From: Vannielia litorea
Lineage (GTDB): Bacteria > Pseudomonadota > Alphaproteobacteria > Rhodobacterales > Rhodobacteraceae
Direction of reading: 5' to 3'
Length of the DNA stretch: 64,000 nt
NCBI RefSeq assembly: GCF_019801175.1
Contig: NZ_JAHVJR010000001.1
Location: 2,944,580 to 3,008,579 of the forward strand
This document shows positions 40,290-64,000 of this stretch, piece after piece. A model generated the notes under the pieces. The model was not told the DNA's origin and ran no database searches. It saw only the letters and a program-made list of their open reading frames with translations. Position numbers and translations under genes: made by a program. Positions within the stretch are counted from its first letter, which is position 1. Each line of letters starts with the position of its first letter.

Positions 40290-40308
40290 GTTGTCCTCCC
40301 GGAAAATC

Positions 40309-48105: not shown

Positions 48106-48900
48106 ATGCGCACGCTGCTCACCGTCCTCCTGCTGACCCTCGCCGCCGCCTCGACGCAGGCCGCACCCCGCACCCTCTGCACCCTCGTGATCGACGCGGC
48201 CACAGGCGCCGCGCTGCACGAGGCGGGCGATTGCGACACGCGCACCACCCCCGCCTCCACCTTCAAACTCGCCCTCGCCATCATCGGTTTCGAGGAGGGG
48301 TTTCTTACCGGCCCTCACGCTCCTGTCCTGCCCTTCCGCCCCGGTGACCCGGACTGGGGCGGCGCCAACTGGACGCGCGAAACAGGCCCAACCGATTGGC
48401 TCCGCTACTCCGTCGTCTGGTATTCGCAGCGCATCACCCACGCGCTCGGGGAGGCCACCCTCACCCGCCATGCCCGCGCCTTTGGCTATGGCAACGCCGA
48501 CTTCTCCGGTGATCCCGGCTTCGGCAACGGGCTCGACCGCGCCTGGATCGCCTCATCGCTGCAAATCTCCCCGCGCGAGCAAACCGACTTCCTGCGCGGT
48601 CTGGTCACCGCCACCCTGCCCGTCTCGCCCGAGGCCATGGCGCAGACCCGCGCCATCACGCAGCGCTTCGAGGCGGGCGGCTGGGTGATCCACGGCAAGA
48701 CCGGCGGCGCCTACCCGCGCCGTGCCGACCGGAGCTTCGATTATGCTGCGGGCTGGGGCTGGTTCGTCGGCTGGGCCGAGCAAGAGGGGCGCACCCTCGT
48801 CTTCGCCCGGCTCACACAGGCCCGCGAGCGCACATCGCGCTCCCCCGGCCTTCTGACGCGCGATAGCCTGCTGGCCGACTGGCCCAAGCTTGCGCCCTAG
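48106..48900 (+). CDS. Class D (OXA-family) beta-lactamase
   Basis: Signal peptide. All class D boxes present: STFK (PASTFKLAL), YGN (FGYGNADF), SxV region, KTG (HGKTGG), WxxG (GWFVGW). Confidence 0.85.
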   Translation: MRTLLTVLLLTLAAASTQAAPRTLCTLVIDAATGAALHEAGDCDTRTTPASTFKLALAIIGFEEGFLTGPHAPVLPFRPGDPDWGGANWTRETGPTDWLRYSVVWYSQRITHALGEATLTRHARAFGYGNADFSGDPGFGNGLDRAWIASSLQISPREQTDFLRGLVTATLPVSPEAMAQTRAITQRFEAGGWVIHGKTGGAYPRRADRSFDYAAGWGWFVGWAEQEGRTLVFARLTQARERTSRSPGLLTRDSLLADWPKLAP

Positions 48901-49076: not shown

Positions 49077-50015
49077 TCAGTTGACCGGCGTCAGCAGGTC
49101 GTTTCCGGCCAGAAAGGCGCTGATGTTGTCGCGCTGAAGCTTCGCCATCGCCGCCCGCGTCTCCACCGTGCCCGAGCCCTGGTGCGGCTGGATCACCACG
49201 TTGTCGAACTCGTAGAACCGCGCGTCGATCTTCGGCTCGTTCACGAACACATCCAGCCCCGCGCCATAGATCCCGCCGCTCTTCAGCGCGGCGATCAGAG
49301 CCTCTTCGTCCACCGTCGAGCCGCGCGAGATGTTCACCAGGATGCCGCGCGGGCCCAGCGCCTCAAGCACCTCTTTCGAAACGATATTTTCGGTCGCTTT
49401 GCCACCCACCGTGGCCACGATCAGGTAATCGACAGCGGCGGCCAGCGCCTCGGGGCTGTCATGATAGGTCCAGCCCGGCGTCTCCTTCTCGGAGCGGCTC
49501 CAGTAGTGCAGATCCATCTTGAACGGCACCAGCCGCTCGGCAATCTCGCGCCCGATCCGGCCAAGGCCAAGGATGCCCGCGCGGCCCCCGCTGACCTTGC
49601 GGTTCAGCCGATATTCACCCTTTTCGGCCCATGATCCGGAGCGCGCCCACTGGCTCGCATGTTCCATCTCCCGGCCGCACATCAGCAGCATCGCCACGGC
49701 AAGGTCAGCCACGTCATCGTTGAGCACGTCAGGGGTGTTGGTCACGCGAATATCGCGCTCCGAGGCGGCCGCCACGTTAATGGAGTCGTAACCAACCCCG
49801 AAGTTGGCGATGACCCCAAGGTTCGGCAGCAGGTCCATCGCCTCGGCGCCAAACGGCTTGTGCCCCTTGAAGCCCGCAGCGGTGATGCCCGCCCGCGTGG
49901 CTTCGTCGAGGCTGCCGATCTCGGTGGTTTCGGCCAGAAAAACCGGGTCGAACGTCTCTTTCAGCTTGGCCAGATCGGCCTCGCTGTAGTTCCCGATTGC
50001 GATCACCTTGCTCAT
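49077..50015 (-). CDS. D-isomer-specific 2-hydroxyacid dehydrogenase (glyoxylate/hydroxypyruvate reductase family)
   Basis: GLGRIGREIAERL NAD motif and the catalytic Arg/Glu/His triad region (ISRGSTVDE...HQGSGT). Confidence 0.85.
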   Translation of the reverse strand: MSKVIAIGNYSEADLAKLKETFDPVFLAETTEIGSLDEATRAGITAAGFKGHKPFGAEAMDLLPNLGVIANFGVGYDSINVAAASERDIRVTNTPDVLNDDVADLAVAMLLMCGREMEHASQWARSGSWAEKGEYRLNRKVSGGRAGILGLGRIGREIAERLVPFKMDLHYWSRSEKETPGWTYHDSPEALAAAVDYLIVATVGGKATENIVSKEVLEALGPRGILVNISRGSTVDEEALIAALKSGGIYGAGLDVFVNEPKIDARFYEFDNVVIQPHQGSGTVETRAAMAKLQRDNISAFLAGNDLLTPVN

Positions 50016-50089
50016 GGCCTGTTCCTCCCCGGCGGCGCGTCAAATGGTATACCATTCCCTCCCACCGCACCGCCGGGGAGTCAAGCCGC

Positions 50090-50932
50090 TCAGCCTTCGC
50101 AGATCTCCTGCACCGACTTTTTCACCGCCTCCAGCGAGAAGACCTGATCCAGCCAGTCTTCCTTGAAGATCACGCTCTTGGCCTTGTCGATCGCCATCAG
50201 GGCGCCATCGCTGAACTTGCCCTCCGGGAAGATGCCAAAGGCAATCGCCAGCTCGATCTTCAGATGCCCCAGCACGAAGTCATGCGCCGCCGCCTCCGGC
50301 ACCCCCATGCTCACCGCCCGGTCGGTCGCATCGCGCAACGCAAGGCTCATCGTGGCCGCCACCGTCTCGCTCAGCGCAGGCTCCAGCACGGCGATGTTTT
50401 CCAGCGTGCAGCGATGGCTCCGGGCCACCGGCGCATAGATGATCTTCGCGATCTCCTCGCAGAGCGCATAATGCTCCTCCGGCCCCTGAATCAGCGCGCA
50501 AACGATCCCCTGCGGCGCCGCGATCCCGCCGAAGTAATCCGCCTGCGCCTCCTTGGTCTCCTGCACCTCGAGGATATGCGGGTGGCAGGGATGGGTGCAA
50601 AAGTAGGTGATGTCATCGCGCTCCGGCATCTCCCCTGCATAGGGCGCCGCGGCGTCCAGCACGATCACCGCCGCGCCGGGCTTCAGCTTGTCCACGAAGC
50701 CATGGGTGATCTTGCCGATCAGCCGGTCCGGCACCGCCATCAGCACCACATCGGCGTCTGAAATCGCGTTGTCGCCGTCGGTCACGGCCTCCACGCCCAC
50801 CTCGTCCAGCAGCCGTTTGCGGCCCACTTCTGACACTTCCACATGGTCAATCTCGAACCGCGTGGGCTTGAGGTTCTGCGCCAGCCGAACGCCCATCTTT
50901 CCCCCCGCACCGAGCAAAGCAACCTTGGTCAT
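50090..50932 (-). CDS. NAD(P)-binding dehydrogenase-like protein (Rossmann N-domain plus 6PGDH-C-like domain), function unknown; candidate oxidoreductase partner of the DUF1537 kinase/RLP
   Basis: MTKVALLGAGGKMG N-terminus. First gene upstream of the kinase, with a 2-nt gap. Longer ORF to 50977 is possible. Confidence 0.55.
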   Translation of the reverse strand: MTKVALLGAGGKMGVRLAQNLKPTRFEIDHVEVSEVGRKRLLDEVGVEAVTDGDNAISDADVVLMAVPDRLIGKITHGFVDKLKPGAAVIVLDAAAPYAGEMPERDDITYFCTHPCHPHILEVQETKEAQADYFGGIAAPQGIVCALIQGPEEHYALCEEIAKIIYAPVARSHRCTLENIAVLEPALSETVAATMSLALRDATDRAVSMGVPEAAAHDFVLGHLKIELAIAFGIFPEGKFSDGALMAIDKAKSVIFKEDWLDQVFSLEAVKKSVQEICEG

Positions 50933-50933
50933 C

Positions 50934-52247
50934 TCATTCTCCTCCTGCGGCACCACCGCCGCGTTTGATCCATCCAAAATAATCGTCCGATCCCATCTGC
51001 CCGCCCTTCAGCGCCAGCTCGAGCCCGGCCAAATTCTCATCCTCCGAATGCGCCCTGAGCAGCGCCGCACCGGGGATCGTCGGGGCCAGTGCGGTAAAGG
51101 CATAAAGCCCCAGCTCGCGGCTCGCGTGGCCACTGGTATCCCCGCCCGAGATCACCGCCCGCTTCAGCCCCGTCTGCCGCAGCAGCCGCGCCAGCACCTT
51201 GCCCAGCGCCGCGCCGATCCGCGCATTCGCCTCTTCCATCCCGCCTGCCGGCACCGCCGCCCGCAGCCGCGCCACAGCAGGGTCATCCGGCCCCTTCGCG
51301 GTGTAGATCAGCGGGTCCCGCCCGGCTTCCAGAGCCTTGAGCGCCGTCTCATAGGCCCCCGTAGCCTCGCCCTTCACGGCGGCCACCGCATCCAGCTCGA
51401 TCCCCTCGAACCCATGCGCCTCAGCCCATGCAATCTGCGCCGCCGTCACCGGCGAAACCGAGCCGGAGACAGCCAGCATCCGCTCCACCGGCCCGGCGCT
51501 CTCGCCCCGGTCCTCCGCAGGCAGCCATCCCTGCGCGCGCCAATGCTCCACCAGCGCGTATTCCACGCCTTGCGAACCGACGGCAAACACCGGCGACTGG
51601 TCCCACATCCGCTGCCCGACCCGGCCCATATGCGCATCCGTCATCGCATCGAATGACCAGACCTCCGCCTCCGGCGAACCGTCCAAGTCCTCCAGCGACA
51701 CCAGCCCAAAGCTCTTGCCCGTCTGCTTCGCCAGATGCCGCGCCACATCGCTCTCATCCATCGGCGTCACCGGATGCCGTGCCATCACCGGGTGCCGGTC
51801 GAGCCGGAACACCCCGCCGGGGCCGGACGCAAACAAATGCCCGAAAGCCTGATAACGCCGCATCTTCGGCGCGGCGAGCAGACAGGGGATGAACGGCCCT
51901 TTCACCACCTCCGCCCCAAGGTCGATTGCCTTGCCGATCGAGCCGATCTCGGGCGATGAGTCCAAGGTCGAGCAAGTTTTGTAATGCACCACCCGCGCAC
52001 CCGTTCCGGCCAGAAAGCGGAACACCCCCGGCAACTCCCGCTCCATCCAGCCGGGCGAATGCGAGCGCGCCGTGGTCGCTACCCCAACCGCCCGCACGCC
52101 GGGAAACCGCGCCAGCTGCGCCTCCGTTGGCACATCCAAGAACAGCACCGCAGGCACCCCCGCGAACTCCAGCACCTCCATGCTGGCCGCCGAGCCGGTG
52201 AAGTCATCCCCCACCCAGCCGATCAGGGTGCCGCCCGGCAGGCTCAC
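50934..52247 (-). CDS. Four-carbon acid-sugar kinase family protein (DUF1537 + DUF4392; OtnK/OiaK-like), paralogue 1
   Basis: GDDFTGSAAS N-motif and ISGGDTSGHASRELG C-motif, homologous to 55643..56881. Start set at GTG overlapping the RLP stop (GTGA). The 126-aa Gly/Arg-rich upstream extension of the raw ORF is rejected. Confidence 0.75.
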   Translation of the reverse strand: MSLPGGTLIGWVGDDFTGSAASMEVLEFAGVPAVLFLDVPTEAQLARFPGVRAVGVATTARSHSPGWMERELPGVFRFLAGTGARVVHYKTCSTLDSSPEIGSIGKAIDLGAEVVKGPFIPCLLAAPKMRRYQAFGHLFASGPGGVFRLDRHPVMARHPVTPMDESDVARHLAKQTGKSFGLVSLEDLDGSPEAEVWSFDAMTDAHMGRVGQRMWDQSPVFAVGSQGVEYALVEHWRAQGWLPAEDRGESAGPVERMLAVSGSVSPVTAAQIAWAEAHGFEGIELDAVAAVKGEATGAYETALKALEAGRDPLIYTAKGPDDPAVARLRAAVPAGGMEEANARIGAALGKVLARLLRQTGLKRAVISGGDTSGHASRELGLYAFTALAPTIPGAALLRAHSEDENLAGLELALKGGQMGSDDYFGWIKRGGGAAGGE

Positions 52248-53488
52248 CCGAAGGCCTCCAGCGCGCCCTTGAGCGCGGGTCGTGTCGCAGCATAGTCCTC
52301 CGCCGCCACACCCGCCTGCGCCGCCTCCCAAGCCTCCCGCAATGAGGCCACGCCTGCCGCCGGCCCATCCGGGTGCGCCATGATCCCGCCGCCCGCCGCG
52401 TGGATGCAATCTGCGTGGCCGACGCGGGCATAGGTCTCCGCCGCCTGCACCGCCGTCTGGCCCGAGGAGAACACCGGCATCGCCACGCAGGGCTTGTCCT
52501 CCCACATTGGCGTGCCGACCGAGAGCGCCGAGGCCACCACGCTGTCGTCCGCCTCCGAGAACTTGTTGCGCAGCCCGTTCACGTGCATGTGGTCCGCCCC
52601 GGCCAGCCGCCAGAGCTTGCTCCACGCAGTGTAGTCCCAGCCCAGCATGTCGGCCCGGCTCAGGTAGCCCCAGCCGCAGCGGTGCGCATGGATCGGCAGC
52701 TCCGAATGGCGCGAGAAGGCGAGGAAACCCGCAAAGCCCACCGAGTTCAGCGAAACCATCGCACAGGTCGCCCCAAGCTCCAGCAGCAGGTCATGCCGCC
52801 ACCGCATCTCGTCCACCTCGCCCGTCAGGTTGAAGGCAAACATCACCTTCTTGCCGGTCTTCTCGGCATGGTCGTTCAGCACGCGCATCACCGCCCGCGC
52901 CCGCGCGTCGAACGGGCAGTTCGGCCCGTCGCTCTGCAACTCGTCATCCTTGATGAAGTCGATGCCCGCCGCGGCCAGATCACCGGCCAGCGAAGCCGTC
53001 TCCTCCGGCCCAAAGCCCACAGAGGGCTTTACGATGGTGCCGATCAACGGCCCTCTCTCCACGCCGCTCAAACGCCGCGTCCCCTCGATCCCAAACTTCG
53101 GCCCCGGATGGGCCGCGCCAAACTCCCGCGGCAGCCGGATATCGCGCAGCCGCAGCCCCGAGAATTGCCGCAACTCAAAGAGGTTGCCTGCCACCGTCGC
53201 CACGAGGTTGGGGATCGACGCCCCGATATTCCCCATCGGCCAACTCAACGTCACCTTCGCCCGCGTATACCGCTCCCCCGTGGCCCCACCGCCCAGCGAC
53301 GGCTCGGCCACCTCGCCCACGACCTCCAGCGCCTCCACCCGCGCCGCCGAGCGCTCGCGCAGCTCCGGCGTCTCCCCCGGCACAGAAACAAAGGTGCCGG
53401 AACTCTGCTCCCCCGCCATCGCCTCCGCCGCCTTGGCCGGGTCCACCGGGGTTTCGATCAGGTAGTCCGCTTCGATGCGTTCACTCAT
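52244..53488 (-). CDS. RuBisCO-like protein (form IV RuBisCO large-subunit homologue)
   Basis: 414 aa with a RuBisCO large-chain TIM-barrel signature (GLRLRDIRLP, GTIVKPSVGF, IDFIKDDE with the carbamylated-Lys region KDDE, HAHR, GGG). Adjacent to a DUF1537 kinase. Confidence 0.8.
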   Translation of the reverse strand: MSERIEADYLIETPVDPAKAAEAMAGEQSSGTFVSVPGETPELRERSAARVEALEVVGEVAEPSLGGGATGERYTRAKVTLSWPMGNIGASIPNLVATVAGNLFELRQFSGLRLRDIRLPREFGAAHPGPKFGIEGTRRLSGVERGPLIGTIVKPSVGFGPEETASLAGDLAAAGIDFIKDDELQSDGPNCPFDARARAVMRVLNDHAEKTGKKVMFAFNLTGEVDEMRWRHDLLLELGATCAMVSLNSVGFAGFLAFSRHSELPIHAHRCGWGYLSRADMLGWDYTAWSKLWRLAGADHMHVNGLRNKFSEADDSVVASALSVGTPMWEDKPCVAMPVFSSGQTAVQAAETYARVGHADCIHAAGGGIMAHPDGPAAGVASLREAWEAAQAGVAAEDYAATRPALKGALEAFG

Positions 53489-54198
53489 TGGAAGTGATCC
53501 TGGTGATAGAGTTCATTGGCGCGCTCGAGGTGGTCTCGCATGGCCTTCGCCGCCGCGCCCTCATCCCCTGCTGCAATCGCATCGAGTATCGCGCGGTGCT
53601 CGGTGAGCGTCAGTTGCTCCAACCCGCGCTTGCGCACCGCCTCTGCGTGAAAGTCGCGCAACCAATCGAACACGCCGGCAGCGAGGGTCTCGAAAATGGG
53701 GTTAGCCGAAATGGCCGCGATGCGACGGTGGAACTTTCCGTCGATCTCAAGAAACTTCTCCGGCTCTTCCGCCGAAAGCTCCTGCGCCGCCAGCAGCGCC
53801 TCCAGCGAGGCGATGTCCACCTCTGTCCGGCGGCGTGCGGCGATCCGGGCCATCTCGGCCTCCAGCGCCGCGCGGGCCTCCTTCAGGTGGTCCATCGAGG
53901 AGGTATGCGCGAGCAGGTGCCGCACCCCGGTGCCCAGTTGCCCGATCAGCCCATCGAGCGACGGCTCCGCCACCCTCGGGCGCCCGCCATGCCGGATTTC
54001 GATCACGCCGCGATGCTGGAGCGCCTGCATCGCCTCGCGGATCGCCGGCCGCCCAATCTCATATCGCGCCATCAGCTCCCGCTCGGAAGGCAAGGCATCG
54101 CCCGGGCCAAGGCCGTCCTCGCGGATCAACCGCAGCAGACGATCCTGCACCTCATCGGCCAGCTTCCGGGGTTTTATTTGATCTGGTAAGCTCATCAT
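53485..54198 (-). CDS. GntR/FadR-family transcriptional regulator
   Basis: N-terminal GntR HTH (LPSERELMARYEIGRPAIREAMQAL) plus FadR-type C-domain. Start overlaps the RLP start region by 4 nt. Confidence 0.8.
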   Translation of the reverse strand: MMSLPDQIKPRKLADEVQDRLLRLIREDGLGPGDALPSERELMARYEIGRPAIREAMQALQHRGVIEIRHGGRPRVAEPSLDGLIGQLGTGVRHLLAHTSSMDHLKEARAALEAEMARIAARRRTEVDIASLEALLAAQELSAEEPEKFLEIDGKFHRRIAAISANPIFETLAAGVFDWLRDFHAEAVRKRGLEQLTLTEHRAILDAIAAGDEGAAAKAMRDHLERANELYHQDHFQ

Positions 54199-54246
54199 AC
54201 CAGTTGCTAGCGCAAGCGTCCGCACCGATCAAGAGCCTTGCTTGGC

Positions 54247-55014
54247 TCAGATGCCTTGCGCCGCCTTCAGCCAGCCCAGCGTCGGCTCCGTCGGCCCGCC
54301 GGGCTTGTATTCCGCCCCCAGCGGGGACTCCCAGCCAAGCGCCTTCAAGTGCCTGTAGATATGCGTGAAATTCACCTCGCCATGATCCGGCGCACCCCGG
54401 TCCGGCACCGCCGCGATCTGGATATGCCCGATCTTCGGCAAGAGCCGCTCCAACCGGTGGCTGAGGTCCCCTTCCATCAACTGCACATGGTAGCAGTCGA
54501 ACATGATCTTCAGGTTCTCCGCCCCCACCTCGGCCAGAATCGCCTCCGCCTGCGCGGTGGTCGAAAGGAAGTATCCCGGCGCGTCATAGTGGTTGATCGG
54601 CTCGATCAGAATGGTCTTTCCCATTCCCGCCGCCTTGCCGCAAGCATAGCCCAGCGCCTCGACAAAGGTGTCATGGTCGCCTCCGAAGCCCGCCATCACA
54701 TGCACCTTCCCGGTGCCGCTCGCCTCGGCATAGGCCAGCGCCTCGTCGATGGCATCCCGCGCCTCCGCCTCACGCCCCGGCACCGCCGAAAAGCCCATCT
54801 CGCGCTTCGCCGCATCGCCCCGCGAGGCATTGAGGCCCAGCATCTCCAGCCCGGTCTCGGCCAGCGCATCGGCCACCTCGCCCGCAGGCACCGCATAGGG
54901 CCAATGGCACTCCACCGCGTCGAACCCCGCCGCCTTGGCGGCCCGGATCGCTTGCGGAAGCGGCAACTCGCTCCAGAGGAACCCGAGGTTGGCCGAAAAT
55001 CTCATGCGTCCCAC
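54247..55014 (-). CDS. otnI: Hydroxypyruvate isomerase family protein (2-oxo-tetronate isomerase OtnI-like)
   Basis: TIM-barrel xylose-isomerase-like. MRFSANLGFLW... and conserved Glu/His metal ligands (ILIEPINHYD, FDCYH). Confidence 0.8.
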   Translation of the reverse strand: MGRMRFSANLGFLWSELPLPQAIRAAKAAGFDAVECHWPYAVPAGEVADALAETGLEMLGLNASRGDAAKREMGFSAVPGREAEARDAIDEALAYAEASGTGKVHVMAGFGGDHDTFVEALGYACGKAAGMGKTILIEPINHYDAPGYFLSTTAQAEAILAEVGAENLKIMFDCYHVQLMEGDLSHRLERLLPKIGHIQIAAVPDRGAPDHGEVNFTHIYRHLKALGWESPLGAEYKPGGPTEPTLGWLKAAQGI

Positions 55015-55646
55015 TCCAGATCGAACTTGCTGACCAGCGCCTGAACCTGCCCGTCGTCGAGGCCCCGCGCGCCCATGCCCCGCGTCATCAGCGCCAGCTT
55101 GGCCGTGGCTTCCAACTCCTCGATGGCGTTGCAGGCCGCCTCCACGTCCTTGCCCGCCACCACCGGCCCGTGGTTGGCCAGCATCACCGCCGATCGTTTA
55201 CCCGCCAGCCCGCGCACCGCCTCGCCCATCGCCGGATCGCCTGGCAGGAAAAAGGGCAGCAGCTTCACCCGGCCCAACTGCATCACCCCATAGGGGGTGA
55301 GCGGCGGCAAAAAGTCGTCCTCGTCGGCCTCCAGCATCGAGAGCGCAACCGAGTGGCACGAATGCAGGTGCACCACCGCCCCCGCCGTGCCGCGCGTGTC
55401 GTAAAACGCCGTGTGCAGCGCCATTTCCTTGGTTGGCTTGTCGCCGCCCACGTGCTGCCCCGCGCTGTCGAACCGCGCCAGCCGCCCCGGGTCGAGCCGG
55501 CCAAAGCTGGTGCCGGTGGGCGAGACCAGCAGGCCGCCATCCTCGGTGCGGGCCGAGATATTGCCGGTCGAGCCGTGGGTCAGCCCCCGGTCGAAAAGCG
55601 ATTTTGCCAGCATGCAAAGCTGTTCGCGCAGGGCCGTCTCGCTCAT
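55002..55646 (-). CDS. otnC: Class II aldolase/adducin-family decarboxylase (3-oxo-tetronate 4-phosphate decarboxylase OtnC-like)
   Basis: LTHGSTGNISAR plus His metal ligands (AVVHLHSCHS). Start set at MSETALREQL (codon 157 of the raw ORF). Confidence 0.8.
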   Translation of the reverse strand: MSETALREQLCMLAKSLFDRGLTHGSTGNISARTEDGGLLVSPTGTSFGRLDPGRLARFDSAGQHVGGDKPTKEMALHTAFYDTRGTAGAVVHLHSCHSVALSMLEADEDDFLPPLTPYGVMQLGRVKLLPFFLPGDPAMGEAVRGLAGKRSAVMLANHGPVVAGKDVEAACNAIEELEATAKLALMTRGMGARGLDDGQVQALVSKFDLEWDA

Positions 55647-56881
55647 GCCAGCATCCCCAGCGCATCGGAAAAGAAGCTCTCGGCCCCGAAGTTGCCCGAC
55701 TTCAGCGCCAGCGCAATCTCCTCGCCACCGGAGACGCAGCCGCACCATGGCACGCCCGGCGCAATCTCGCGGCCCACGTCGAGCCGGGTCACGCCCAGCG
55801 CCTGCGTGACCGCGCCCGAGGTCTCGCCGCCCGCCACCACGATCCGCCGCGCGCCCTGGTCGCGCGCCTGCACCGCCAGCGCGGCCAGCGCCTCTTCGAC
55901 CACTTCGCCAGCGCGGGCTGTCCCCAATTCGCTCTGCGCCCGGCGCACCGCCTGCGGCTCCGCCGTAGCATAGACGATCGGCGCCTTGCCCATGTCCTGC
56001 TTGGCCAGCCAGTTGGAGGCCGCGCCGTGGCCCTCGGCGGCCAGCACCAGCGGGTCGAGCTTGAAGGCCGGGCCAGCATAGGCCGCCACCTGCGCGCGCG
56101 TCATCGCCGAGCAACTGCCCGAGAGCACCACCGCGCCCGGCCCCACCTGTGGCACCGTGGCTTCACGGGCGCTGTCATCGAGCAGGCCCGCCTCGCGATA
56201 GAGCGCCGGCAAGGGCATCGCCAGCGCCGAACCGCCGGTCATCAGCGCCATGTCGCGGCCCGCGCGGGCTATGATCTCGAGGTCGGCGTCCGCCACCGCA
56301 TCCACGACCACATGCGCCGGGGCCTTGGCCAGCGCCTCGGCCAGCGCCTCCGCGCCCCGCGCCACGGTGAGCCTGTCCACCAGCCCCACCTCGCGCGTAA
56401 CCTGCGGGCCAAGCAGCCGCATCAGGTTGCTGTCGCGCATCGGGGTCAGCGGGTGGTCCTTCATCGGGCTCTCCGCCAAGGGCTGCTGCCCGACAAAGAG
56501 GTTGCCCATGAACACCGAGCGCCCGTTCTCGGGGAAGGCCGGGCAATAGACCGTGCGCTCCGCCCCCAGCGCCGCCATCAACGCCTCCGACACCGGGCCG
56601 ATGTTGCCCTCTGCGGTCGAGTCGAAGGTGCTGCAATACTTCCAGAAAAACCGCTCCGCCCCGGTGCCCTTCAGCCAGTCGAGCGCGGTCAGCGCCTCCG
56701 ACACGGCCTCGCTCACCGGCGCAGTGCGGATCTTCAGGGCGACCACCTCAAAGGGCGCATCGCTCTCGCCGTCCTCCGGCACCCCGATGCGCAGCGAAAC
56801 CTTCGCCCCGCTCCGCGCCAGCAGGCCCGCCAGATCGGTGGCACCCGTGAAATCGTCGGCAATCGCCCCGAAAATGGCCAT
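55643..56881 (-). CDS. otnK: Four-carbon acid-sugar kinase (DUF1537/DUF4392; 3-oxo-tetronate kinase OtnK-like), paralogue 2
   Basis: MAIFGAIADDFTGATDLAGLL N-motif, VVAGGETSGAVTQALG C-motif. Start overlaps the otnC stop. Confidence 0.85.
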   Translation of the reverse strand: MAIFGAIADDFTGATDLAGLLARSGAKVSLRIGVPEDGESDAPFEVVALKIRTAPVSEAVSEALTALDWLKGTGAERFFWKYCSTFDSTAEGNIGPVSEALMAALGAERTVYCPAFPENGRSVFMGNLFVGQQPLAESPMKDHPLTPMRDSNLMRLLGPQVTREVGLVDRLTVARGAEALAEALAKAPAHVVVDAVADADLEIIARAGRDMALMTGGSALAMPLPALYREAGLLDDSAREATVPQVGPGAVVLSGSCSAMTRAQVAAYAGPAFKLDPLVLAAEGHGAASNWLAKQDMGKAPIVYATAEPQAVRRAQSELGTARAGEVVEEALAALAVQARDQGARRIVVAGGETSGAVTQALGVTRLDVGREIAPGVPWCGCVSGGEEIALALKSGNFGAESFFSDALGMLA

Positions 56882-56882
56882 G

Positions 56883-57680
56883 CTATTCCTCGTGAATTCC
56901 GTCAGCCGTGAAGGCCCCGCCCTGGTAAACCACCTGCGGCGCATCGATGGCAGGCATCTCCTCCATCTGCTCCACCACGGCGCGGTAATCTTCCGCCCGG
57001 TCCTGCGGTTCCCAGCCGAGGAAGCCGACCTCGCGGTTGTCCCACCAGCCGGTCGCGTTGTTGGAGGCGCCGTAGACGATCGGGCAGCCGATCTTCGGCG
57101 CGCGGAACACGCACTCGATCAGCCGCACGAAATCATCGTAGCTCATCCAGCTCGCCAGCATCCGCCGGTTCTTCGGCTCAGGGAAGCAGGAGCCGATCCG
57201 CACGCTCGCGGTCTCGATGCCGAATTTGTTGTAATACATCGACGCCATCGCCTCGCCGAAGACCTTGCTCACACCATAGAGCCCGTCCGGCTGGGTCAGC
57301 GCATTGGCATCGAGCCGCGTCGTCTGCTTGTGAAAGCCCACCGCGTGGTTGGAACTGGCAAAGATCACCCGGTTGCAGCCGGTGTTACGACAGGCCTCGT
57401 ATAGGTTGAACACCCCGTCGATATTGGCGTTGCGGATGACCGACCACGTATCTTCAATCGACCGGCCGCCCAGATGCACGATCCCGTCGCAGCCGCGCAC
57501 GAGGTCTTCAACCGCCGCCTTGTCGCCCAAGTCGCAAACCACGACCTCCTCGTTCTCCCCGGCAGGCGGCATCTCGACCACGTCAGAGAGCCTCAGGGTC
57601 TTCGCCATATGTTTCAGGCGGTCGCGGCACATCGAGCCAAGGCCGCCAGCGGCGCCGGTGATCAGCAGTCGGTTCATCAT
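56883..57680 (-). CDS. Short NAD-dependent epimerase/dehydratase-family dehydrogenase (uronate dehydrogenase-like / acid-sugar dehydrogenase)
   Basis: LLITGAAGGLG Rossmann motif and YGVSK catalytic motif. 265 aa, the size class of uronate dehydrogenases. Confidence 0.7.
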   Translation of the reverse strand: MMNRLLITGAAGGLGSMCRDRLKHMAKTLRLSDVVEMPPAGENEEVVVCDLGDKAAVEDLVRGCDGIVHLGGRSIEDTWSVIRNANIDGVFNLYEACRNTGCNRVIFASSNHAVGFHKQTTRLDANALTQPDGLYGVSKVFGEAMASMYYNKFGIETASVRIGSCFPEPKNRRMLASWMSYDDFVRLIECVFRAPKIGCPIVYGASNNATGWWDNREVGFLGWEPQDRAEDYRAVVEQMEEMPAIDAPQVVYQGGAFTADGIHEE

Positions 57681-57695
57681 AGTCTTCTCTCCCTG

Positions 57696-58478
57696 TCAGG
57701 ACTTATGCGCATGGGTTTTCAGGAAGGCCAGAGCAGCCTCCCGCATTTCCGCGGTTTCGGCATGGCCGGCTTCCGGTTGGAAGAAATGGGTGAGCCCCTC
57801 CGGCGGCAGCTTGGCCAGCGCGGCTTCACGGGCGGCTTGCGGCGTCAGCGCGTCCTGCCCGCCGTGGGCCACAAAGAGCGGGCGCGGCGCGATCCGCGCG
57901 GCCACATCGCCTTGGTCGCCCATGCGGAGCAGGCCGGGCGCGGTGTACCACGGCCCGTGACGCGCATGGGCGCCGGTTTCGATCATGGGCGCGATATCGG
58001 CCAGCATGATCAGGCTCACCGCCCCCGCGACCCTTGGCTCCAGCGCGGCGAGCCATGTGCCAAGCCCCGCACCCATCGAGGCACCCCAGGTGAAGATCCG
58101 TGCAGCATCCACGCGCGGGTCAGCGGCCAGATGCTCAAAGGCCCCGCGCTGGTCGGCCAGCATCCGGGCAAAGAGCGAGCGCCCGTGCCACGCCTCGGCC
58201 AGCGACAGCGCCTCTTCGCTGCCCTCGGCCTGCCGCGTGCCAAACCCCGGCATGTCGATGCAATACACCGCAAAGCCCGCCGCCACCAAAGCCGGGCCGG
58301 GCGGCCCGCTTGTCCACCATGCGCCTTCGGTCAGCTCCCGCTTGCCAAGGCCGTATTCGCCTCCGTGGGCATGGCAATAGAGCACCGCCGGAAACGGCCC
58401 CGACCCTTCCGGGCACAAGAGCACCCCGCCCGCCAACGGCTCCGCCGGCGCCCAGCCCACCAGCTCCTCCAAGCGCAT
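57696..58478 (-). CDS. Alpha/beta hydrolase (dienelactone hydrolase-like)
   Basis: GASMGAG nucleophile elbow, a downstream Asp, and a His near the C-terminus (EAGHAET). Confidence 0.7.
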   Translation of the reverse strand: MRLEELVGWAPAEPLAGGVLLCPEGSGPFPAVLYCHAHGGEYGLGKRELTEGAWWTSGPPGPALVAAGFAVYCIDMPGFGTRQAEGSEEALSLAEAWHGRSLFARMLADQRGAFEHLAADPRVDAARIFTWGASMGAGLGTWLAALEPRVAGAVSLIMLADIAPMIETGAHARHGPWYTAPGLLRMGDQGDVAARIAPRPLFVAHGGQDALTPQAAREAALAKLPPEGLTHFFQPEAGHAETAEMREAALAFLKTHAHKS

Positions 58479-59656
58479 CAGGTGTAGCCGTAGGAGCCGT
58501 CAGGCCGCACGGGCAACTTGCGCTCCCAATGAATGTAACGGTCGGTCGCGAGAAACTCCTCGTCGATCTCCACACCCCAGCCGGGCCGGTCGGGGCGCAG
58601 CTCCAGATGGCCGTCCACCGGCATGTAGGGGTCTTTCACATAGCCCGCCGCCTCATCGGTTTTCACCATGTCGCGGGTCAGAAAGGCCGAGGTGCCCGGC
58701 AGCCGGTATTCGAGGATTTTGAAGTTGGGCTGCGCGGCGCAGAAATGCACGTTCACCGCCGTCGCCAGCGGCCCCATCGGGTTGTGCGGCGCAACGTTCA
58801 CGTAATGCGCCTCGGCAATCGCCGCGATCTTGCGCATCTCCAGCAGCCCGCCCACGGCGCAGATATCGGGCTGGATGATGTCCGCCCCCTTCACCGCCAG
58901 CAGACGGTTGAACTCGAAGCGCGAATACAGGCTCTCCCCGGTCGCCAGCGGCACCTTCAGCTGCCGCTTCAGATCGCCCCAAGCCTCGATGTTCTCCATC
59001 CGCATCGGCTCTTCGTAAAAGAGCGGGCGGAAGGCAGCGAGCGCATTGCCCATTTCCACCGCCTGATAGGGCTCGAAGAGGCGGGCGTGGGCATCAAAGG
59101 CAAATTCCGCATCCGGGCAAAGCTCACGCAGCTCGGCCACCCATTCCTCGGTTTGGCCAACCACCCTGTGCCACGGCTCGGCATGAATATCGCAACGATA
59201 GGGCGAAAGCTTGAAGGCATTGAGACCCCACGCCTCCCGGTGCTCCGCCACATGGTCGGCCACCTCCGCCGCATCGGGCGCCGAGTAGACGCCCTGATAC
59301 ACCCGCACCCGGTCACGCACATGCCCGCCAAGCAGCTTGTAAACCGGAACGCCCAGCGCCTTCGCCGAAATGTCCCAAAGCGCATGGTCGATCCCGGCAA
59401 TAGCCGCTAGGCCAAGCGCGCCGGGCGGAAAGCGGCTCTGCTGGAGCAGCTTCAAGATCAGCCGCTCGATCCGCGTCGGGTCTTCGCCTTCGATCTGGAG
59501 GTAGAGGTAATCAAGCAGCGGCGGCAGCGCGCGGTCCGGCCCGTGGTTGTAGCACTCGCCCCAGCCGGTGATCCCCTCGTCGGTATCGACCGCCACAATC
59601 ACGCGCGGGCGGTTGCCGTCGCGCGACATGAAGCTTCTCAAGCCAGTGATCTTCAT
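58478..59656 (-). CDS. Enolase-superfamily MR/MLE-type enzyme (acid-sugar lactone cycloisomerase / dehydratase)
   Basis: MKITGL capping domain. Barrel metal ligands (FDAHARL..., YEEP, QPDI) and KxK motif (FKLSPYR). Confidence 0.85.
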   Translation of the reverse strand: MKITGLRSFMSRDGNRPRVIVAVDTDEGITGWGECYNHGPDRALPPLLDYLYLQIEGEDPTRIERLILKLLQQSRFPPGALGLAAIAGIDHALWDISAKALGVPVYKLLGGHVRDRVRVYQGVYSAPDAAEVADHVAEHREAWGLNAFKLSPYRCDIHAEPWHRVVGQTEEWVAELRELCPDAEFAFDAHARLFEPYQAVEMGNALAAFRPLFYEEPMRMENIEAWGDLKRQLKVPLATGESLYSRFEFNRLLAVKGADIIQPDICAVGGLLEMRKIAAIAEAHYVNVAPHNPMGPLATAVNVHFCAAQPNFKILEYRLPGTSAFLTRDMVKTDEAAGYVKDPYMPVDGHLELRPDRPGWGVEIDEEFLATDRYIHWERKLPVRPDGSYGYT

Positions 59657-60519
59657 CCCGCAAACCTCGCTTGCTCCACGCCCGTCACGCCAAGGCCGGT
59701 GACGGCAAAGAGGTTGCCATCCAGCGCATCCGGCGCGTCGGAACCGATTGAGGTGACATAGAGGATGTCGAGGTTGCGCCCACCGAACATCGGCTTGGTC
59801 GGGCGCTCCACCGGCATGTCGATGATCCGGTCTACCTTGCCCTGCGGCGTGATCCGCACCAACTGCGCGCCGCTGATCCCGGCCATCCAGTAGCAGCCAT
59901 CGGCATCCACCGTGCCGCCATCGGGTCGCCCCGCGACCTCGCGGGTGTCAAAGAAAACCTTCCGGTTCGAGGGCGTGCCGCTTTCGGTATCGTAGTCGCA
60001 AGCCCAGATGGTGCGCACCAGCGGGTTGCTATCGGAGTAGTAGAGCGTTGTGCCGTCGGGGCTGAAGGCAAGGCCGTTGGTGGTGTAGACCTTGTCGAAG
60101 AAGGGCGTTACCGACCCGTCCGTGCCGTAGCGGTAGAACTGCCCCAGCTGCTCCGGGTCGCCGCCGTCTTTCATCGTGCCGGCCCAGAACCGGCCCTGCA
60201 TATCGGTGCCGCCATCGTTGAAGCGGTTGCCGGGCCGGTCGGCCTCGGGGTCCGTGAGGAAGGTCTTTGTTAAGGTTTCCGGGTCATAAAGATAAAAGCC
60301 GGACTTCGCCGCCACGATCAGCCCGCCAGCCTCCCGCCGGGCAACGCACCCGACCGGCTCGCCAAAGTCGAATGCCTCGTCGCTGCCATCCTCCCCGGTG
60401 CGGTGAATCTTTCCGCCAGAGATATCGGCCCACCAAAGCGCCTGGTCGCCCACGTCCCAAACAGGCCCCTCTCCCAGCTGCGCCCGAGCGGGCACGGCCA
60501 CATCAACCGAAACTGTCAT
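59653..60519 (-). CDS. SMP-30/gluconolactonase/LRE-family lactonase
   Basis: LGEGPVWD, NRFNDGGTDMQGRFW and TNGLAFSPDG propeller motifs. Confidence 0.8.
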   Translation of the reverse strand: MTVSVDVAVPARAQLGEGPVWDVGDQALWWADISGGKIHRTGEDGSDEAFDFGEPVGCVARREAGGLIVAAKSGFYLYDPETLTKTFLTDPEADRPGNRFNDGGTDMQGRFWAGTMKDGGDPEQLGQFYRYGTDGSVTPFFDKVYTTNGLAFSPDGTTLYYSDSNPLVRTIWACDYDTESGTPSNRKVFFDTREVAGRPDGGTVDADGCYWMAGISGAQLVRITPQGKVDRIIDMPVERPTKPMFGGRNLDILYVTSIGSDAPDALDGNLFAVTGLGVTGVEQARFAG

Positions 60520-60522
60520 GGA

Positions 60523-61254
60523 TCACTCTCCCTTGAACACCCGCCGCTCGGACGCCTCGATATGCTCGGCCATCGCCGCCCGCGCCGCTGTGGCATCGCC
60601 CGCGGCTATCGCATCAAAGATCCGACGGTGCTCGTTTCCCATTGAGACCTTGCCCTCCCGGTATCCGGTGGAGCCAAGACTGCGCACAAACTTACCGATA
60701 AAAAACATCTGCGTTCGCAGCATGCGCAAAGTATCAAGTATGAACCTGTTGTCAGACAACTCCGCGATCCGCACGTGAAACCGCGCATCCATGTCGATGG
60801 TCGAGGTGCCTTCGCGCACGCTCGCCTCCATGTCTTCCAGCATGGCCTCCAGCGCCGCAACCTCCTCGGGCGTCACCTTCTGTGCCGCCAGACCGGCGCT
60901 CTCGACCTCCAGCATCTTCCGAAAACCGATGTAGGCCGCGATATCATCGATGCTCTGCAAAGGCGCGTATCCGGCACCCGGCTGGTCACCGCCCCCGCTG
61001 ATGAACGACCCGGCCCCCTGCCGCGACACGATCAGCCCATCTTCGCGCAACCGCGCAAGGGCCGCACGAATCACGGGGCGCGATACACCATGCTCTGCCG
61101 AAAGGTCCTTTTCCGCCGGCAGCTTGGCCCCCAGCGTGTAGTGCCCGCTGCGGATTTGCCCGAGCAGGCGCTCGTAGATCTGATTCTCCAGCCGCCGCGC
61201 GTGGGCCGCCTCCCCGCGCGAAGGCACATCTTTCGACACAGTATTCATTAACAC
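60523..61254 (-). CDS. GntR/FadR-family transcriptional regulator
   Basis: HTH (LPAEKDLSAEHGVSRPVIRAALARL) plus FCD C-domain. Heads the downstream acid-sugar operon. Confidence 0.8.
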   Translation of the reverse strand: MLMNTVSKDVPSRGEAAHARRLENQIYERLLGQIRSGHYTLGAKLPAEKDLSAEHGVSRPVIRAALARLREDGLIVSRQGAGSFISGGGDQPGAGYAPLQSIDDIAAYIGFRKMLEVESAGLAAQKVTPEEVAALEAMLEDMEASVREGTSTIDMDARFHVRIAELSDNRFILDTLRMLRTQMFFIGKFVRSLGSTGYREGKVSMGNEHRRIFDAIAAGDATAARAAMAEHIEASERRVFKGE

Positions 61255-61387
61255 GTTCTCCCGCCCGGAGATGTATCACGGGCCTCGAAATTACAACATG
61301 AGATAATTTGTTTGACAAGTTGTCATCGGAAATGCTGACCTTGTGCCGCTGAGACTCGGAAGAGCGAAAGCACAGGGAGGAAAATCC

Positions 61388-63310
61388 ATGACACGAAATT
61401 GGCGATTCTCGTCAGTGGCCGCGCTTGCCGTCGGCGTATTCTTGCATCCGTTCACCGCCCAGGCAGGCGAAGCGCCCGCTCTGGCCGAAGCCGTTGCCGC
61501 AGGCAACCTGCCACCCTTGGAAGAGCGGCTGCCAGCCCAGCCCGAGGTGGTCACGGGGCTGGAGAACATCGGCACCTACGGCGGCAAACTGCGCCGGATG
61601 CTTGGCGGCTCGAACGATCACAACTCCATTCTGCGCATCATCAGCCCGCAGGGCCTGACCCGCTGGAAAGCCGACTTTTCCGGCGTGGTGCCCAACGTGG
61701 CCGAGAGCTGGGAAACTAACGAAGACGGCTCCGAGTTCACCTTCAAGCTCCGCGAGGGCATGAAGTGGTCGGACGGCGAGCCCTTCACCGCCGATGATGT
61801 GGTGTTCTTCGTCAACGACTTGTTGAACAACAAGGAATTCTACCCCAACCCGCCTGCCCGCTTCGTGGTGGCCGGAGAGCCGATGCAGGCCGAGAAGGTG
61901 GATGACCACACCGTCACGCTGAAGTTCGCAGCGCCCTACGGCACCTTCCTGACCGAGCTGGCCACGCCGCTCGCACAGGAGCCGGTGCTCTGGGCCAAGC
62001 ACTACTGCCAGCAGTTCCACCCGGCCTACAACGACGACGTGCAGGCGATGGTGGATGAGACAGAGGCGGTCGAAGACTGGCCCGCGCTCTACCGCCTGAA
62101 GTGCGGCGAGGTCGAGGCCCCCAACCGCTGGTCCAACCCCGAGCGTCCCACGCTCGACCCTTGGGTGGTTACTGGCGAGGGCTATTCCGCCGGTTCCACG
62201 CAGGTGGTCATGGAGCGCAATCCCTACTTCTGGCAGGTCGACGAGGAGGGCAACCAGCTCCCCTATATCGACACGCTGGAGATGGGCGTCGCGCAAGACA
62301 ACGAGGCCCTCGTGCTGGAGGCCATTGCTGGCAACATCGACTTCCAGCGCCGGAAAATCTCGAACCCGGCCAACAAGCCGGTCTTTGCCGAGAACGCCGA
62401 AAAGGGCGGTTTCGAGATCCTCGACATGATCAACTCGAACTCCAACTCGATGGCGATCCACTTCAACCACACGCACAAGAACCCGCAGATGCGCGATTTC
62501 ATCCGCAACAAGGATGTGCGCGTGGCGCTGAGCCTCGGGATCGACCGCGAGGAGATCATCGACATCGTCTATCAGGGCCAGGGCGAGCCCTACCAGATCG
62601 GGCCGCGGCCGACCCATGTGCTCTACAACGAGCAACTGGGCAAGCAGCACACCGAGTATGATCCTGACAAGGCCAACGAACTGCTCGATGCTGCCGGCTA
62701 TGCCGAGATGGACGACGAAGGCTACCGCCTGTTCCCCGATGGCACCCGGATCGTGTTCAACGCGCAGTACACCGGCGTTGAGCAGCCCGATTGGGGCGAC
62801 AGCCTCGAGATCATCAAGGAGCAGTGGGAAGAGATCGGCATCGAGCTGAACTCGACCTCGGTCGAACGGTCGATCTACTACTCGCGCGGTGAAGCCAACG
62901 AGCATGACTTCATGGTCTGGGGCGCACCCGGCGGGCTGGACCCGACCCTCTCTCCGCGCGATGTGCTCGCCGTCCATCCGCAGGCCAGCTGGTTCGGCAT
63001 CCCCTGGACGCGCTGGTATCTTTCCGGCGGCTCGGAAGGTGAAGAGCCGACCGAGAGCATGAAGAAACGCCTCGCGCTCTACGACAGCTTCAAGCAGGAG
63101 GCCGATCAGGAGAAGGCGCTGGATATCTTCCGGCAGATTCACCAGGAGGCCGCCGACGAGATGGAAATCATCGGCATCTCCCTCGCTCCCAACCTCGTGG
63201 GCGTGGTGAACAAGAACCTGATGAACGCGCCGCGCAGCCTTCCCTCGTCGTGGATGTATCCTGACCCGGGCCCGACCCTGCCGCAAACCTGGTACTGGCC
63301 GGAAAGCTGA
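61388..63310 (+). CDS. ABC transporter substrate-binding protein, family 5 (oligopeptide/oligosaccharide type)
   Basis: Signal peptide MTRNWRFSSVAALAVGVFLHPFTAQA. SBP_bac_5 architecture, ~640 aa. Confidence 0.85.
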   Translation: MTRNWRFSSVAALAVGVFLHPFTAQAGEAPALAEAVAAGNLPPLEERLPAQPEVVTGLENIGTYGGKLRRMLGGSNDHNSILRIISPQGLTRWKADFSGVVPNVAESWETNEDGSEFTFKLREGMKWSDGEPFTADDVVFFVNDLLNNKEFYPNPPARFVVAGEPMQAEKVDDHTVTLKFAAPYGTFLTELATPLAQEPVLWAKHYCQQFHPAYNDDVQAMVDETEAVEDWPALYRLKCGEVEAPNRWSNPERPTLDPWVVTGEGYSAGSTQVVMERNPYFWQVDEEGNQLPYIDTLEMGVAQDNEALVLEAIAGNIDFQRRKISNPANKPVFAENAEKGGFEILDMINSNSNSMAIHFNHTHKNPQMRDFIRNKDVRVALSLGIDREEIIDIVYQGQGEPYQIGPRPTHVLYNEQLGKQHTEYDPDKANELLDAAGYAEMDDEGYRLFPDGTRIVFNAQYTGVEQPDWGDSLEIIKEQWEEIGIELNSTSVERSIYYSRGEANEHDFMVWGAPGGLDPTLSPRDVLAVHPQASWFGIPWTRWYLSGGSEGEEPTESMKKRLALYDSFKQEADQEKALDIFRQIHQEAADEMEIIGISLAPNLVGVVNKNLMNAPRSLPSSWMYPDPGPTLPQTWYWPES

Positions 63311-63381
63311 CCCTTCGGGCGGGCCTTCGGGCCCGCCCCCACCGCCCTTCGGCGCAACGACTACCCTGACAGGCAAACCCA

Positions 63382-63999
63382 ATGATCTGGCGTTACATCC
63401 TGAAACGCATCCTCTGGATGGTGCCGTTTCTCTTCGGTGTCTCCATCGTCGCCTTCCTGCTCATCCAGGCGCCGCCGGGAGACTACCTGACGACCTATAT
63501 CGCCAAGCTGGGCGAGAGCAACGAGGTGCTGGACCAGGCCTCAATTGAAAACCTCCGCGCCCGCTTCGGCCTCGACCAGCCACTCTACGTGCAGTATTTC
63601 AAGTGGGTGAGCCGCCTCCTGGTAGGCGACTTCGGGATGAGCTTCGAATGGCGGCAGCCGGTTTCCGATCTTGTCTGGGGCCGCATGGGCCTGACGCTTT
63701 GCCTCTCGATGGCGACCTTGCTCTTCACATGGGCCGTTGCCTTCCCCATCGGCGTCTATTCCGCCGTGCGCAAGTATTCCTTCGGCGACTACCTCGCCAC
63801 CACCATCGGCTTCATCGGCCTCGCCACCCCCAACTTTCTGCTCGCGCTGATCCTCATGTACATCGGCGTCGTCCACTTTGGCGCAGATGTCGGCGGCCTC
63901 TTCTCCAATGAGTACAAGAACGCCCCGTGGAGCTGGGCCAAGGTCTGGGACCTGATGAAACACCTCTGGCTACCGGTCGTCGTGCTGGGCACTTCGGCC
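63382..63999 (+). CDS. ABC transporter permease (DppB/OppB-like), 5' portion; runs off the window end
   Basis: MIWRYILKRILWMVPFLFGVSIVAFLLIQAPPGDYL, a typical OppB N-terminus. No stop before the window end. Confidence 0.8.
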   Translation, partial: MIWRYILKRILWMVPFLFGVSIVAFLLIQAPPGDYLTTYIAKLGESNEVLDQASIENLRARFGLDQPLYVQYFKWVSRLLVGDFGMSFEWRQPVSDLVWGRMGLTLCLSMATLLFTWAVAFPIGVYSAVRKYSFGDYLATTIGFIGLATPNFLLALILMYIGVVHFGADVGGLFSNEYKNAPWSWAKVWDLMKHLWLPVVVLGTSA

Positions 64000-64000
64000 A

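Follow-up and report, generated by a model that had tools for sequence, protein, structure and literature searches.

Two known sugar-acid modules probably joined head to tail in a gene island of Vannielia litorea

Do genes that overlap one another on a chromosome necessarily serve one pathway? The question is raised by eight consecutive minus-strand genes at 54247-61254 of a 64,000-nucleotide stretch of the Vannielia litorea genome (Rhodobacteraceae; contig NZ_JAHVJR010000001.1, positions 2,944,580 to 3,008,579; henceforth the window), in which genes for uronate oxidation, ending with the uronate dehydrogenase gene udh, run straight into the otnK-otnC-otnI genes of tetronate catabolism. A first-pass annotation, made from the DNA letters, had proposed a hybrid or new route leading from a C5 or C6 sugar acid to a tetronate. 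Our comparisons point elsewhere: we put at roughly 0.72 the probability that the eight genes are two biochemically independent, known modules joined head to tail in a mosaic sugar-acid island. What is new is the arrangement of these modules, together with one uncharacterised conserved hydrolase.

Architecture of the eight-gene array

The description of eight minus-strand genes with overlapping or near-abutting ends held. All eight open reading frames (ORFs) were confirmed at the coordinates below, with overlaps or gaps of no more than 15 nt, and every family call of the first-pass annotation was right, including the 'Udh-like' one (matches to PDB 3AY3 and 3RFT) and the OtnK/OtnC/OtnI set (Pfam and NCBIfam models). 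The importer, which it had placed downstream, is actually divergent and lies upstream of the regulator.

60523-61254, minus strand: GntR1, FadR-subfamily GntR regulator (Pfam PF00392, HTH, and PF07729, FCD)
59653-60519, minus strand: SMP-30/SGL gluconolactonase-family lactonase (PF08450, 275 bits, E 7e-82)
58478-59656, minus strand: MR_MLE enolase-superfamily (MR subgroup) enzyme, putative acid-sugar dehydratase, galactarate-dehydratase-III-like (Pfam and homology)
57696-58478, minus strand: alpha/beta serine hydrolase, esterase or lactonase (weak family matches)
56883-57680, minus strand: Udh, uronate dehydrogenase (EC 1.1.1.203 type), a 265-aa Epimerase-family short-chain dehydrogenase/reductase (SDR; PDB matches)
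55643-56881, minus strand: OtnK, 3-oxo-tetronate kinase, DUF1537 (NF043035, PF07005, PF17042)
55002-55646, minus strand: OtnC, 3-oxo-tetronate-4-phosphate decarboxylase, class II aldolase fold (NF043034)
54247-55005, minus strand: OtnI-like 2-oxo-tetronate isomerase, xylose-isomerase-like TIM barrel of the hydroxypyruvate-isomerase family (NF043033 as best match)
61388-63310, plus strand: substrate-binding protein (SBP) of a family-5 (Opp/Dpp-type) ABC importer (SBP_bac_5-type NCBIfam matches)
63370-64000, plus strand: start of a putative ABC permease, clipped by the window end (a high-GC3 ORF called by synteny with locus L010)

Going down the array from the regulator, gntR1 and the lactonase gene are 3 nt apart, the lactonase and MR_MLE genes share an ATGA overlap, the MR_MLE and hydrolase genes a TGATG overlap, the hydrolase gene and udh are separated by 15 nt, udh and otnK by 1 nt, and both otnK/otnC and otnC/otnI overlap by ATGA. 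The kinase most likely starts at 56881 (an ATG 1 nt past the udh stop) and not at the longest-ORF start, 56944; OtnC starts at 55646, and the isomerase at 55005 (the ATGA overlap) or at an alternative GTG, 55014. The ORF pattern is not a matter of chance: the full order is kept in at least three related loci (L002, L004, L010; the loci compared here carry L numbers) and on a truncated contig of a metagenome-assembled genome (MAG), L003.

Co-transcription of all eight genes is plausible because the udh-otnK gap leaves no room for a promoter or a terminator. To that extent the single transcription unit of the first-pass annotation stands; its lower boundary does not, as the minus-strand array runs on past 54247, with a 21-nt gap and then five further genes down to 49077. 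A promoter and terminator scan between 48.9 and 61.5 kb, uninformative for an alphaproteobacterium, gave no promoter-like sites and no terminator-like sites between genes, only four intragenic pattern matches, fewer than in shuffled sequences.

A conserved uronate unit and a clade-specific junction

Loci anchored on the alpha/beta hydrolase were collected from species-representative genomes, contigs with homologues and metagenomes, and all window proteins were mapped onto them. This neighbourhood comparison, which the first-pass annotation had suggested, showed that the core is conserved, that the two halves are separable and that they are fused in one clade only. The family-5 ABC importer, (in part of the loci) the GntR regulator, the lactonase, the MR_MLE enzyme, the hydrolase and Udh make up a conserved unit in nine independent Rhodobacterales lineages; the lactonase adjoins Udh-module genes in all nine (9/9), and Silicimonas retains only lactonase, hydrolase and Udh. 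In seven of the nine the uronate half occurs without otn genes, and the otn half is found with an ltnD of its own on a Paracoccus seriniphilus plasmid and in Marivita. What follows udh differs from lineage to lineage:

Rhodobacter MAG (L005) and Pseudoponticoccus (L007): KdgD (NCBIfam, 398 and 406 bits)
Mameliella (L012) and Primorskyibacter (L017): KdgD (DHDPS Pfam match)
Psychromarinibacter (L011, 10983-12680) and Pseudoruegeria (L015, 10947-12631): a DGOK-family kinase, whose gene overlaps udh by 4 nt in L015
Silicimonas (L013): unrelated genes
Marivita (L006): an opposite-strand gene, then LtnD (417.9 bits against a cutoff of 350), then otnK-otnC-otnI
Oceanicola/Vannielia clade (window, L002, L003, L004, L010): otnK directly

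The direct udh-otnK junction is thus confined to the last group, a genus-level clade, and was met in none of 80 metagenomic hydrolase loci. Within this clade the stop-(1-2 nt)-ATG arrangement is kept even though the hydrolase has diverged to 75% identity.

The importer is a conserved partner of the uronate module. Its SBP is 74-99% identical at the equivalent position in L002-L007 and is represented there by a PF00496 match in L010, L011, L012, L015 and L017; in L010 two BPD_transp_1 permeases and a fused ATPase come after it. Beyond the ABC ATPase gene, most loci encode a second MR_MLE enzyme (L010, 1-1264; L012, 1-1230; L017, 1-1785; L007, 416-1618), which shares 32-35% identity with the first in the cases measured (L007 and a Rhizobium plasmid), and an Abhydrolase_3/BD-FAE esterase is also present in three of these loci; the corresponding region of the V. 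litorea chromosome lies past the window end. These flanking genes suggest that the imported compound may have to be de-esterified and dehydrated a second time.

Enzymes of the uronate module

By sequence, the short SDR is a genuine uronate dehydrogenase. Over residues 1-262 it scores 335 bits against 3AY3 (Chromohalobacter) and 326 bits against 3RFT (Agrobacterium), both solved Udh structures; its identity to bona fide uronate dehydrogenases is about 60%, and the alignment shows conserved SSNH and YGxSK motifs. Two other identities were tried and discarded: DenD, for which the protein gives 34 bits on the DenD model, and Ltn3D, which is a classical SDR unrelated to Udh.

The MR_MLE enzyme scores 577 bits against PDB 4JN7 and 140 bits against 4GGB/4HPN. 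The PDB table names these entries only 'ENOLASE' or 'Putative uncharacterized protein'; we take 4JN7 to be the Enzyme Function Initiative target titled 'putative galactarate dehydratase', and 4GGB/4HPN to represent the proposed galactarolactone cycloisomerase (Gci), an identity that the two scores rule out for the window enzyme. It is 64% identical to a Rhizobium plasmid protein with the NCBI name 'galactarate dehydratase', presumably of the GalrD-III family, that is, the Agrobacterium/Rhizobium galactarate dehydratase III (GalrD-III, A9CG74) whose gene cluster Groninger-Poe and colleagues reportedly described in 2014. No curated hidden Markov model (HMM) cutoff is passed, the galactonate dehydratase model included (265 against 311, NCBIfam). 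A GalrD-III-like aldarate dehydratase is the most fitting assignment, and the SMP-30 protein, of regucalcin type (147 bits to regucalcin), is a putative aldaro-lactone hydrolase.

The Rhizobium sp. N731 plasmid resembles the window in more than its dehydratase. It carries a family-5 SBP transporter (its SBP, beside the 'galactarate dehydratase', is 50% identical to ours), a divergent GntR gene, a Udh-like SDR, an SMP-30 lactonase and a DHDPS-family enzyme. The plasmid differs in gene order and in its Udh-like protein, only 37% identical; it has neither this alpha/beta hydrolase family nor otn genes, and its DHDPS outlet has no counterpart found in the window.

On these assignments the first module (gntR1, lactonase, MR_MLE, hydrolase, udh and the divergent importer) would encode the upper steps of oxidative hexuronate breakdown, in the variant that uses a lactonase. 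Udh would convert D-galacturonate or D-glucuronate to the aldaro-1,5-lactone, the SMP-30 lactonase would open this to the aldarate, and the GalrD-III-like enolase would dehydrate the aldarate to 5-keto-4-deoxy-aldarate. The KdgD step, which follows directly in sister lineages, would here be encoded elsewhere or be absent.

The published form of this variant, as reported in PMC6353982, comprises Udh, the lactonase UxuL or UxuF, an aldarate dehydratase, KdgD and KGSADH (Bouvier et al. 2018/2019). The window shares with it a Udh and, grouped with this enzyme, a GntR regulator and a transporter into one operon, it has an SMP-30 lactonase and a putative aldarate-type dehydratase. It departs from it in that the dehydratase is enolase-superfamily and GalrD-III-like, not GarD/GudD, that the transporter is family-5 ABC and not TRAP/TTT, that a conserved serine hydrolase is added and that KdgD and KGSADH were not found in the window.

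The tetronate module and its dehydrogenase

Two of the three tetronate enzymes exceed the curated cutoffs of their own models: OtnK with 517.9 bits against 350 (NF043035) and OtnC with 285.3 bits against 250 (NF043034). The isomerase has the OtnI model NF043033 as its best match, with 266 bits under a cutoff of 325, and hydroxypyruvate isomerase comes second with 234 bits. OtnK shares 66.5% identity with the annotated otnK product of P. seriniphilus, encoded in a canonical operon, and 69% with that of Marivita, OtnC is 78% identical to homologues in canonical operons, and the isomerase is 63-65% identical to those encoded in the ltnD-otnK-otnC-otnI operons of P. seriniphilus (L001; 65%) and Marivita.

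As summarised in PMC12994016, L-threonate and D-erythronate undergo degradation in four steps by LtnD or DenD, OtnI, OtnK (DUF1537) and OtnC (Zhang et al. 2016 PNAS). The window agrees with this pathway in having OtnK, OtnC and an OtnI-like enzyme in the usual K-C-I order, overlapping and 63-78% identical to canonical operons; it differs in that the unit holds no ltnD or denD, that udh takes the upstream position and that the isomerase stays under the equivalog cutoff. The first-pass annotation was therefore right to call the arrangement non-textbook, since ltnD is missing from the unit. Nor was an LtnD found anywhere in the 64-kb window: its sole beta-hydroxyacid dehydrogenase, at the left edge of the island, is excluded by 119 bits against the LtnD cutoff of 350.

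A DenD is present. The plus-strand gene at 47058-48017 scores 387.8 bits against a cutoff of 325 on the DenD model (NF043036), lies outside the eight-gene unit, about 6 kb away, on the other strand and in a convergent operon, and has a 74% identical orthologue at the equivalent position in Marivita. A DenD-type erythronate route with extra lactone handling, the other suggestion of the first-pass annotation, is in this respect partly borne out: a bona fide DenD lies 6 kb away, but it would act in trans, and the lactone genes are not needed for it.

The second module, otnK-otnC-otnI, would carry 2-oxo-tetronate to 3-oxo-tetronate, then to the 4-phosphate, and finally to dihydroxyacetone phosphate and CO2, with DenD, and possibly other dehydrogenases too, supplying 2-oxo-tetronate in trans. 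Set against Marivita, ltnD and the spacer that there parts the tetronate genes from udh look deleted in the lineage of the window, so that the second module would have lost both.

Regulation

Between gntR1 and the SBP gene, at 61308-61318, lies a TTGT-N3-ACAA palindrome, TTGTCAAACAA, an exact match where chance predicts 0.08; it is a candidate GntR1 operator. The identical 11-mer is found in the equivalent intergenic region of L002, L003, L004, L010, L006, L011 and L015, all of which have GntR1, and is absent from L005, L007, L013 and L017, all of which lack it; GntR1 itself occupies this position in the clade as well as in L006, L011, L012 and L015. This distribution fits control of the divergent promoters of the uronate module by GntR1. 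A second TTGT-N3-ACAA site, TTGTCAGACAA, falls inside the gntR1 coding region at 60749-60759, with equivalents in the clade, Marivita and Mameliella, and might serve as an auxiliary operator.

Near otnK there is no such site, and otnKCI would seem to have no regulatory region of its own here. Given the apparent loss of ltnD and its spacer, transcription of these three genes most likely reads through from the promoter that GntR1 would control.

Two modules or one pathway

That the modules are independent is suggested by chemistry as well as by distribution. Uronates, aldaro-lactones, aldarates and 5-keto-4-deoxy-aldarate should offer neither a terminal CH2OH to OtnK nor a 3-OH at the keto end to OtnI, which makes direct hand-over from the first module to the second unlikely. 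The hybrid C5/C6-to-tetronate route of the first-pass annotation was thus not upheld: the modules are separable elsewhere, their junction is restricted to one clade, and the intermediates appear chemically unsuited.

Several observations weigh against two independent modules. Neither module is complete locally: a tblastn search of the 64-kb window gave no KdgD, and no DHDPS, aldehyde dehydrogenase or GarL-type aldolase was found among the scanned window ORFs. A search for homologues of the KdgD of L005 returned none from Vannielia or Oceanicola among the matches listed, all of at least 79% identity, which says nothing on absence from these genera. The substrate of the MR_MLE enzyme is assigned by homology. 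Two lineages (L011 and L015) have a DGOK kinase after udh, which a pure aldarate route leaves unaccounted for, since aldarate derivatives lack a primary alcohol that could be phosphorylated. Finally, the fused state is stable and may be selected, as the tight junction is kept across a clade whose hydrolases are down to 75% identity.

This last point also counts for the most probable of the alternatives, which we nevertheless regard as unlikely: that the modules are biochemically independent and that their fusion is adaptive co-regulation, with one GntR1-controlled transcript, perhaps of 13 genes, serving as a 'sugar-acid funnel' for compounds that co-occur in plant and algal cell-wall debris (galacturonate, glucuronate, pectin apiose, and threonate/erythronate from ascorbate and sugar oxidation). 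The fusion is kept within the clade, only 21 nt separate otnI from gntR2, where a D-apionate-type module prolongs the array, the island also encodes DenD, KdgK-like, IdnD/IdnO-like and lactonase proteins, and the text of PMC12994016 puts forward a funnel of this kind for C4/C5/C6 clusters and points to ApnO-OiaK-OiaX close by in a few Rhodobacterales. However, gntR2 inside the array suggests separate control of its downstream part, and neutral deletion explains a fusion seen in one lineage equally well; because of that confinement, selection for co-regulation is not general.

A true hybrid is improbable. Here Udh, lactonase, hydrolase and the MR_MLE enzyme would make a 2-oxo or 3-oxo acid for OtnI, OtnK and OtnC, and OtnKCI would replace KdgD as the outlet. 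Such a replacement is conceivable, as the KdgD outlet sits after udh in four sister lineages; the udh-otnK junction is tight and conserved, LtnD and KdgD were not found in the window, and OtnK and OtnC are reported in the text of PMC12994016 to accept 3-oxo C5/C6 aldonic acids in vitro. The promiscuous route described there, however, depends on Ltn3D, a 3-dehydrogenase of aldonates, and no SDR of this type was found here, the one classical SDR in the vicinity being of the gluconate-5-dehydrogenase type. The modules are separable in eight of the nine lineages, the otnKCI set of Marivita being distinct and having its own LtnD; Udh is close to bona fide uronate dehydrogenases; and, besides the missing CH2OH, the product of the dehydratase should be 3-deoxy and so no substrate for OtnI. 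Were the hybrid true, it would be a new outlet for uronate catabolism.

A wider form of the same idea is quite improbable as well, namely that all eight genes serve one pathway with at least one undescribed reaction, either because OtnI-K-C replace KdgD or because an ester or conjugate taken up through the importer is cleaved by the hydrolase into a uronate and a tetronate. Least credible of all is a C3 link, in which 'OtnI', as a hydroxypyruvate isomerase on tartronate semialdehyde from a GarL-type aldolase, and the 2-hydroxyacid dehydrogenase would serve the aldarate route: the sub-cutoff OtnI score with hydroxypyruvate isomerase second (266 against 234 bits), the Marivita order of otnI followed by 2-hydroxyacid dehydrogenase and HpcH/GarL-like aldolase genes, and the tartronate-semialdehyde-reductase-like gene at 39.4 kb are outweighed by the lack of any GarL/HpcH aldolase found in the window, the 63-65% identity to isomerases of canonical operons, and the ATGA overlap with otnC beside an OtnK and an OtnC above their curated cutoffs.

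Two known modules placed end to end remain our preferred reading, and the locus then serves as a cautionary case: tight operon packing alone is no sign of a shared pathway, and comparative neighbourhoods can tell a lineage-specific fusion from a conserved functional link.

The conserved serine hydrolase

The alpha/beta hydrolase is the one uncharacterised element of the eight-gene locus. It gave only weak family matches, and no closely related protein with a solved structure or a name turned up; across 32 aligned homologues the triad of Ser134 (GxSMG), Asp209 and His239 is invariant, and there is an HGG motif. The predicted structure has a pLDDT of 96, and a fold search with it returned only generic esterases (CE7, CE15, YjfP and feruloyl esterases) at TM scores of 0.6-0.7.

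In the uronate module of these marine Rhodobacterales the hydrolase gene is always directly upstream of udh, with the lactonase or dehydratase gene on its other side; the copy of Vannielia sp. SX4 is 97% identical to that of the window. Outside the module the family is broader. Among the 80 metagenomic relatives (L018-L097; 41-56% identity), 77 are paralogues that are not beside Udh, lactonase or MR_MLE genes and only three are in a Udh context, and the copies in Aquibium (L014) and Roseibacterium (L016) likewise lie outside such a context. The Udh-linked hydrolases are a subgroup of this wider uncharacterised family.

As speculation, its substrate may be an ester or a lactone of some other form. 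According to PMC6353982, UxuL and UxuF open 1,5- and not 1,4-lactones, and for that reason hydrolysis of aldaro-1,4-lactones is a candidate role; the hydrolase would then be a candidate for a missing step in hexuronate oxidation.

The surrounding sugar-acid island

The part of the window beyond about 39 kb forms, through to its end, a mosaic sugar-acid island. Besides the eight genes and the importer, it contains the following:

53485-54225, minus strand: GntR2 (NanR-type)
52244-53488, minus strand: RuBisCO-like protein (RLP; OiaX model, 437 bits against a cutoff of 700)
50934-52247, minus strand: second DUF1537 kinase (OiaK model, 452 bits against a cutoff of 700)
50090-50932, minus strand: ApnO-like PGDH_C protein (PF16896 only)
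49077-50015, minus strand: 2-hydroxyacid dehydrogenase
48106-48900, plus strand: class D (OXA-type) beta-lactamase (NF000270, 306 bits against a cutoff of 280)
42797-48017, plus strand: operon of a GlcD-like FAD oxidase, a 381-aa FAH-family protein, a second SMP-30 lactonase, a KdgK-like kinase (238 bits against a cutoff of 400) and DenD
47058-48017, plus strand: DenD, D-erythronate dehydrogenase (NF043036), within that operon
39372-42204, left edge of the island: tartronate-semialdehyde-reductase-like beta-hydroxyacid dehydrogenase (39.4 kb), SDR and zinc dehydrogenase, idonate/ketogluconate metabolism

The five genes at 49077-54225 are conserved as a block in L002, L004 and L010. The nearest solved relative of the RLP is the uncharacterised 3NWR, and with OiaX- and OiaK-model scores well under their cutoffs the block may be a diverged D-apionate-type module, possibly for another substrate. 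In Marivita the 2-hydroxyacid dehydrogenase gene comes directly after otnI, and for this reason the RLP block looks inserted in the window.

Mixed C4/C5/C6 sugar-acid clusters have been described in Paracoccus and Roseovarius, with ApnO-OiaK-OiaX nearby, and interpreted as a 'metabolic funnel' (Watanabe et al. 2026; PMC12994016). Like the islands in the text of that article, the 39-64 kb part of the window mixes tetronate and C5/C6 genes and, as in some of those islands, has an ApnO-OiaK-OiaX-like block near them; unlike them, it yielded no Ltn3D-type gene, whereas that text centres on Ltn3D, a classical SDR that bypasses OtnI. The same text contains no instance of 'uronate dehydrogenase' and no Udh/GalrD-III module or udh-otnK fusion. 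What the present locus adds to such islands is a Udh/GalrD-III module.

The lactonase-KdgK-DenD trio is kept in Marivita too; a DenD inside a keto-deoxy-sugar-acid operon is unusual in itself. The position of the beta-lactamase gene is taken by a Transpeptidase-domain gene (PF00905) in Oceanicola sp. 502str15 (L010) and by an HpcH/GarL-like aldolase gene in Marivita. At the left edge, the SDR is gluconate-5-dehydrogenase-like (IdnO-like; 301 bits to 5U9P), a type that rules it out as Ltn3D, and the zinc dehydrogenase is L-idonate-5-dehydrogenase-like (IdnD-like; 357 bits against a cutoff of 469).

The remainder of the window, 1-39371, is unrelated to sugar acids. Pfam matches there include MotA, a FliI-type ATPase, a catalase (14505-16070), a TPP-dependent enzyme and a lytic transglycosylase; from their translations only, we also noted further genes of flagella and motility (a FlhA-like 694-aa protein and rod-protein-like ORFs), as well as an SMC-like protein of 1162 aa, an apparent TrpB and a large sensor kinase.

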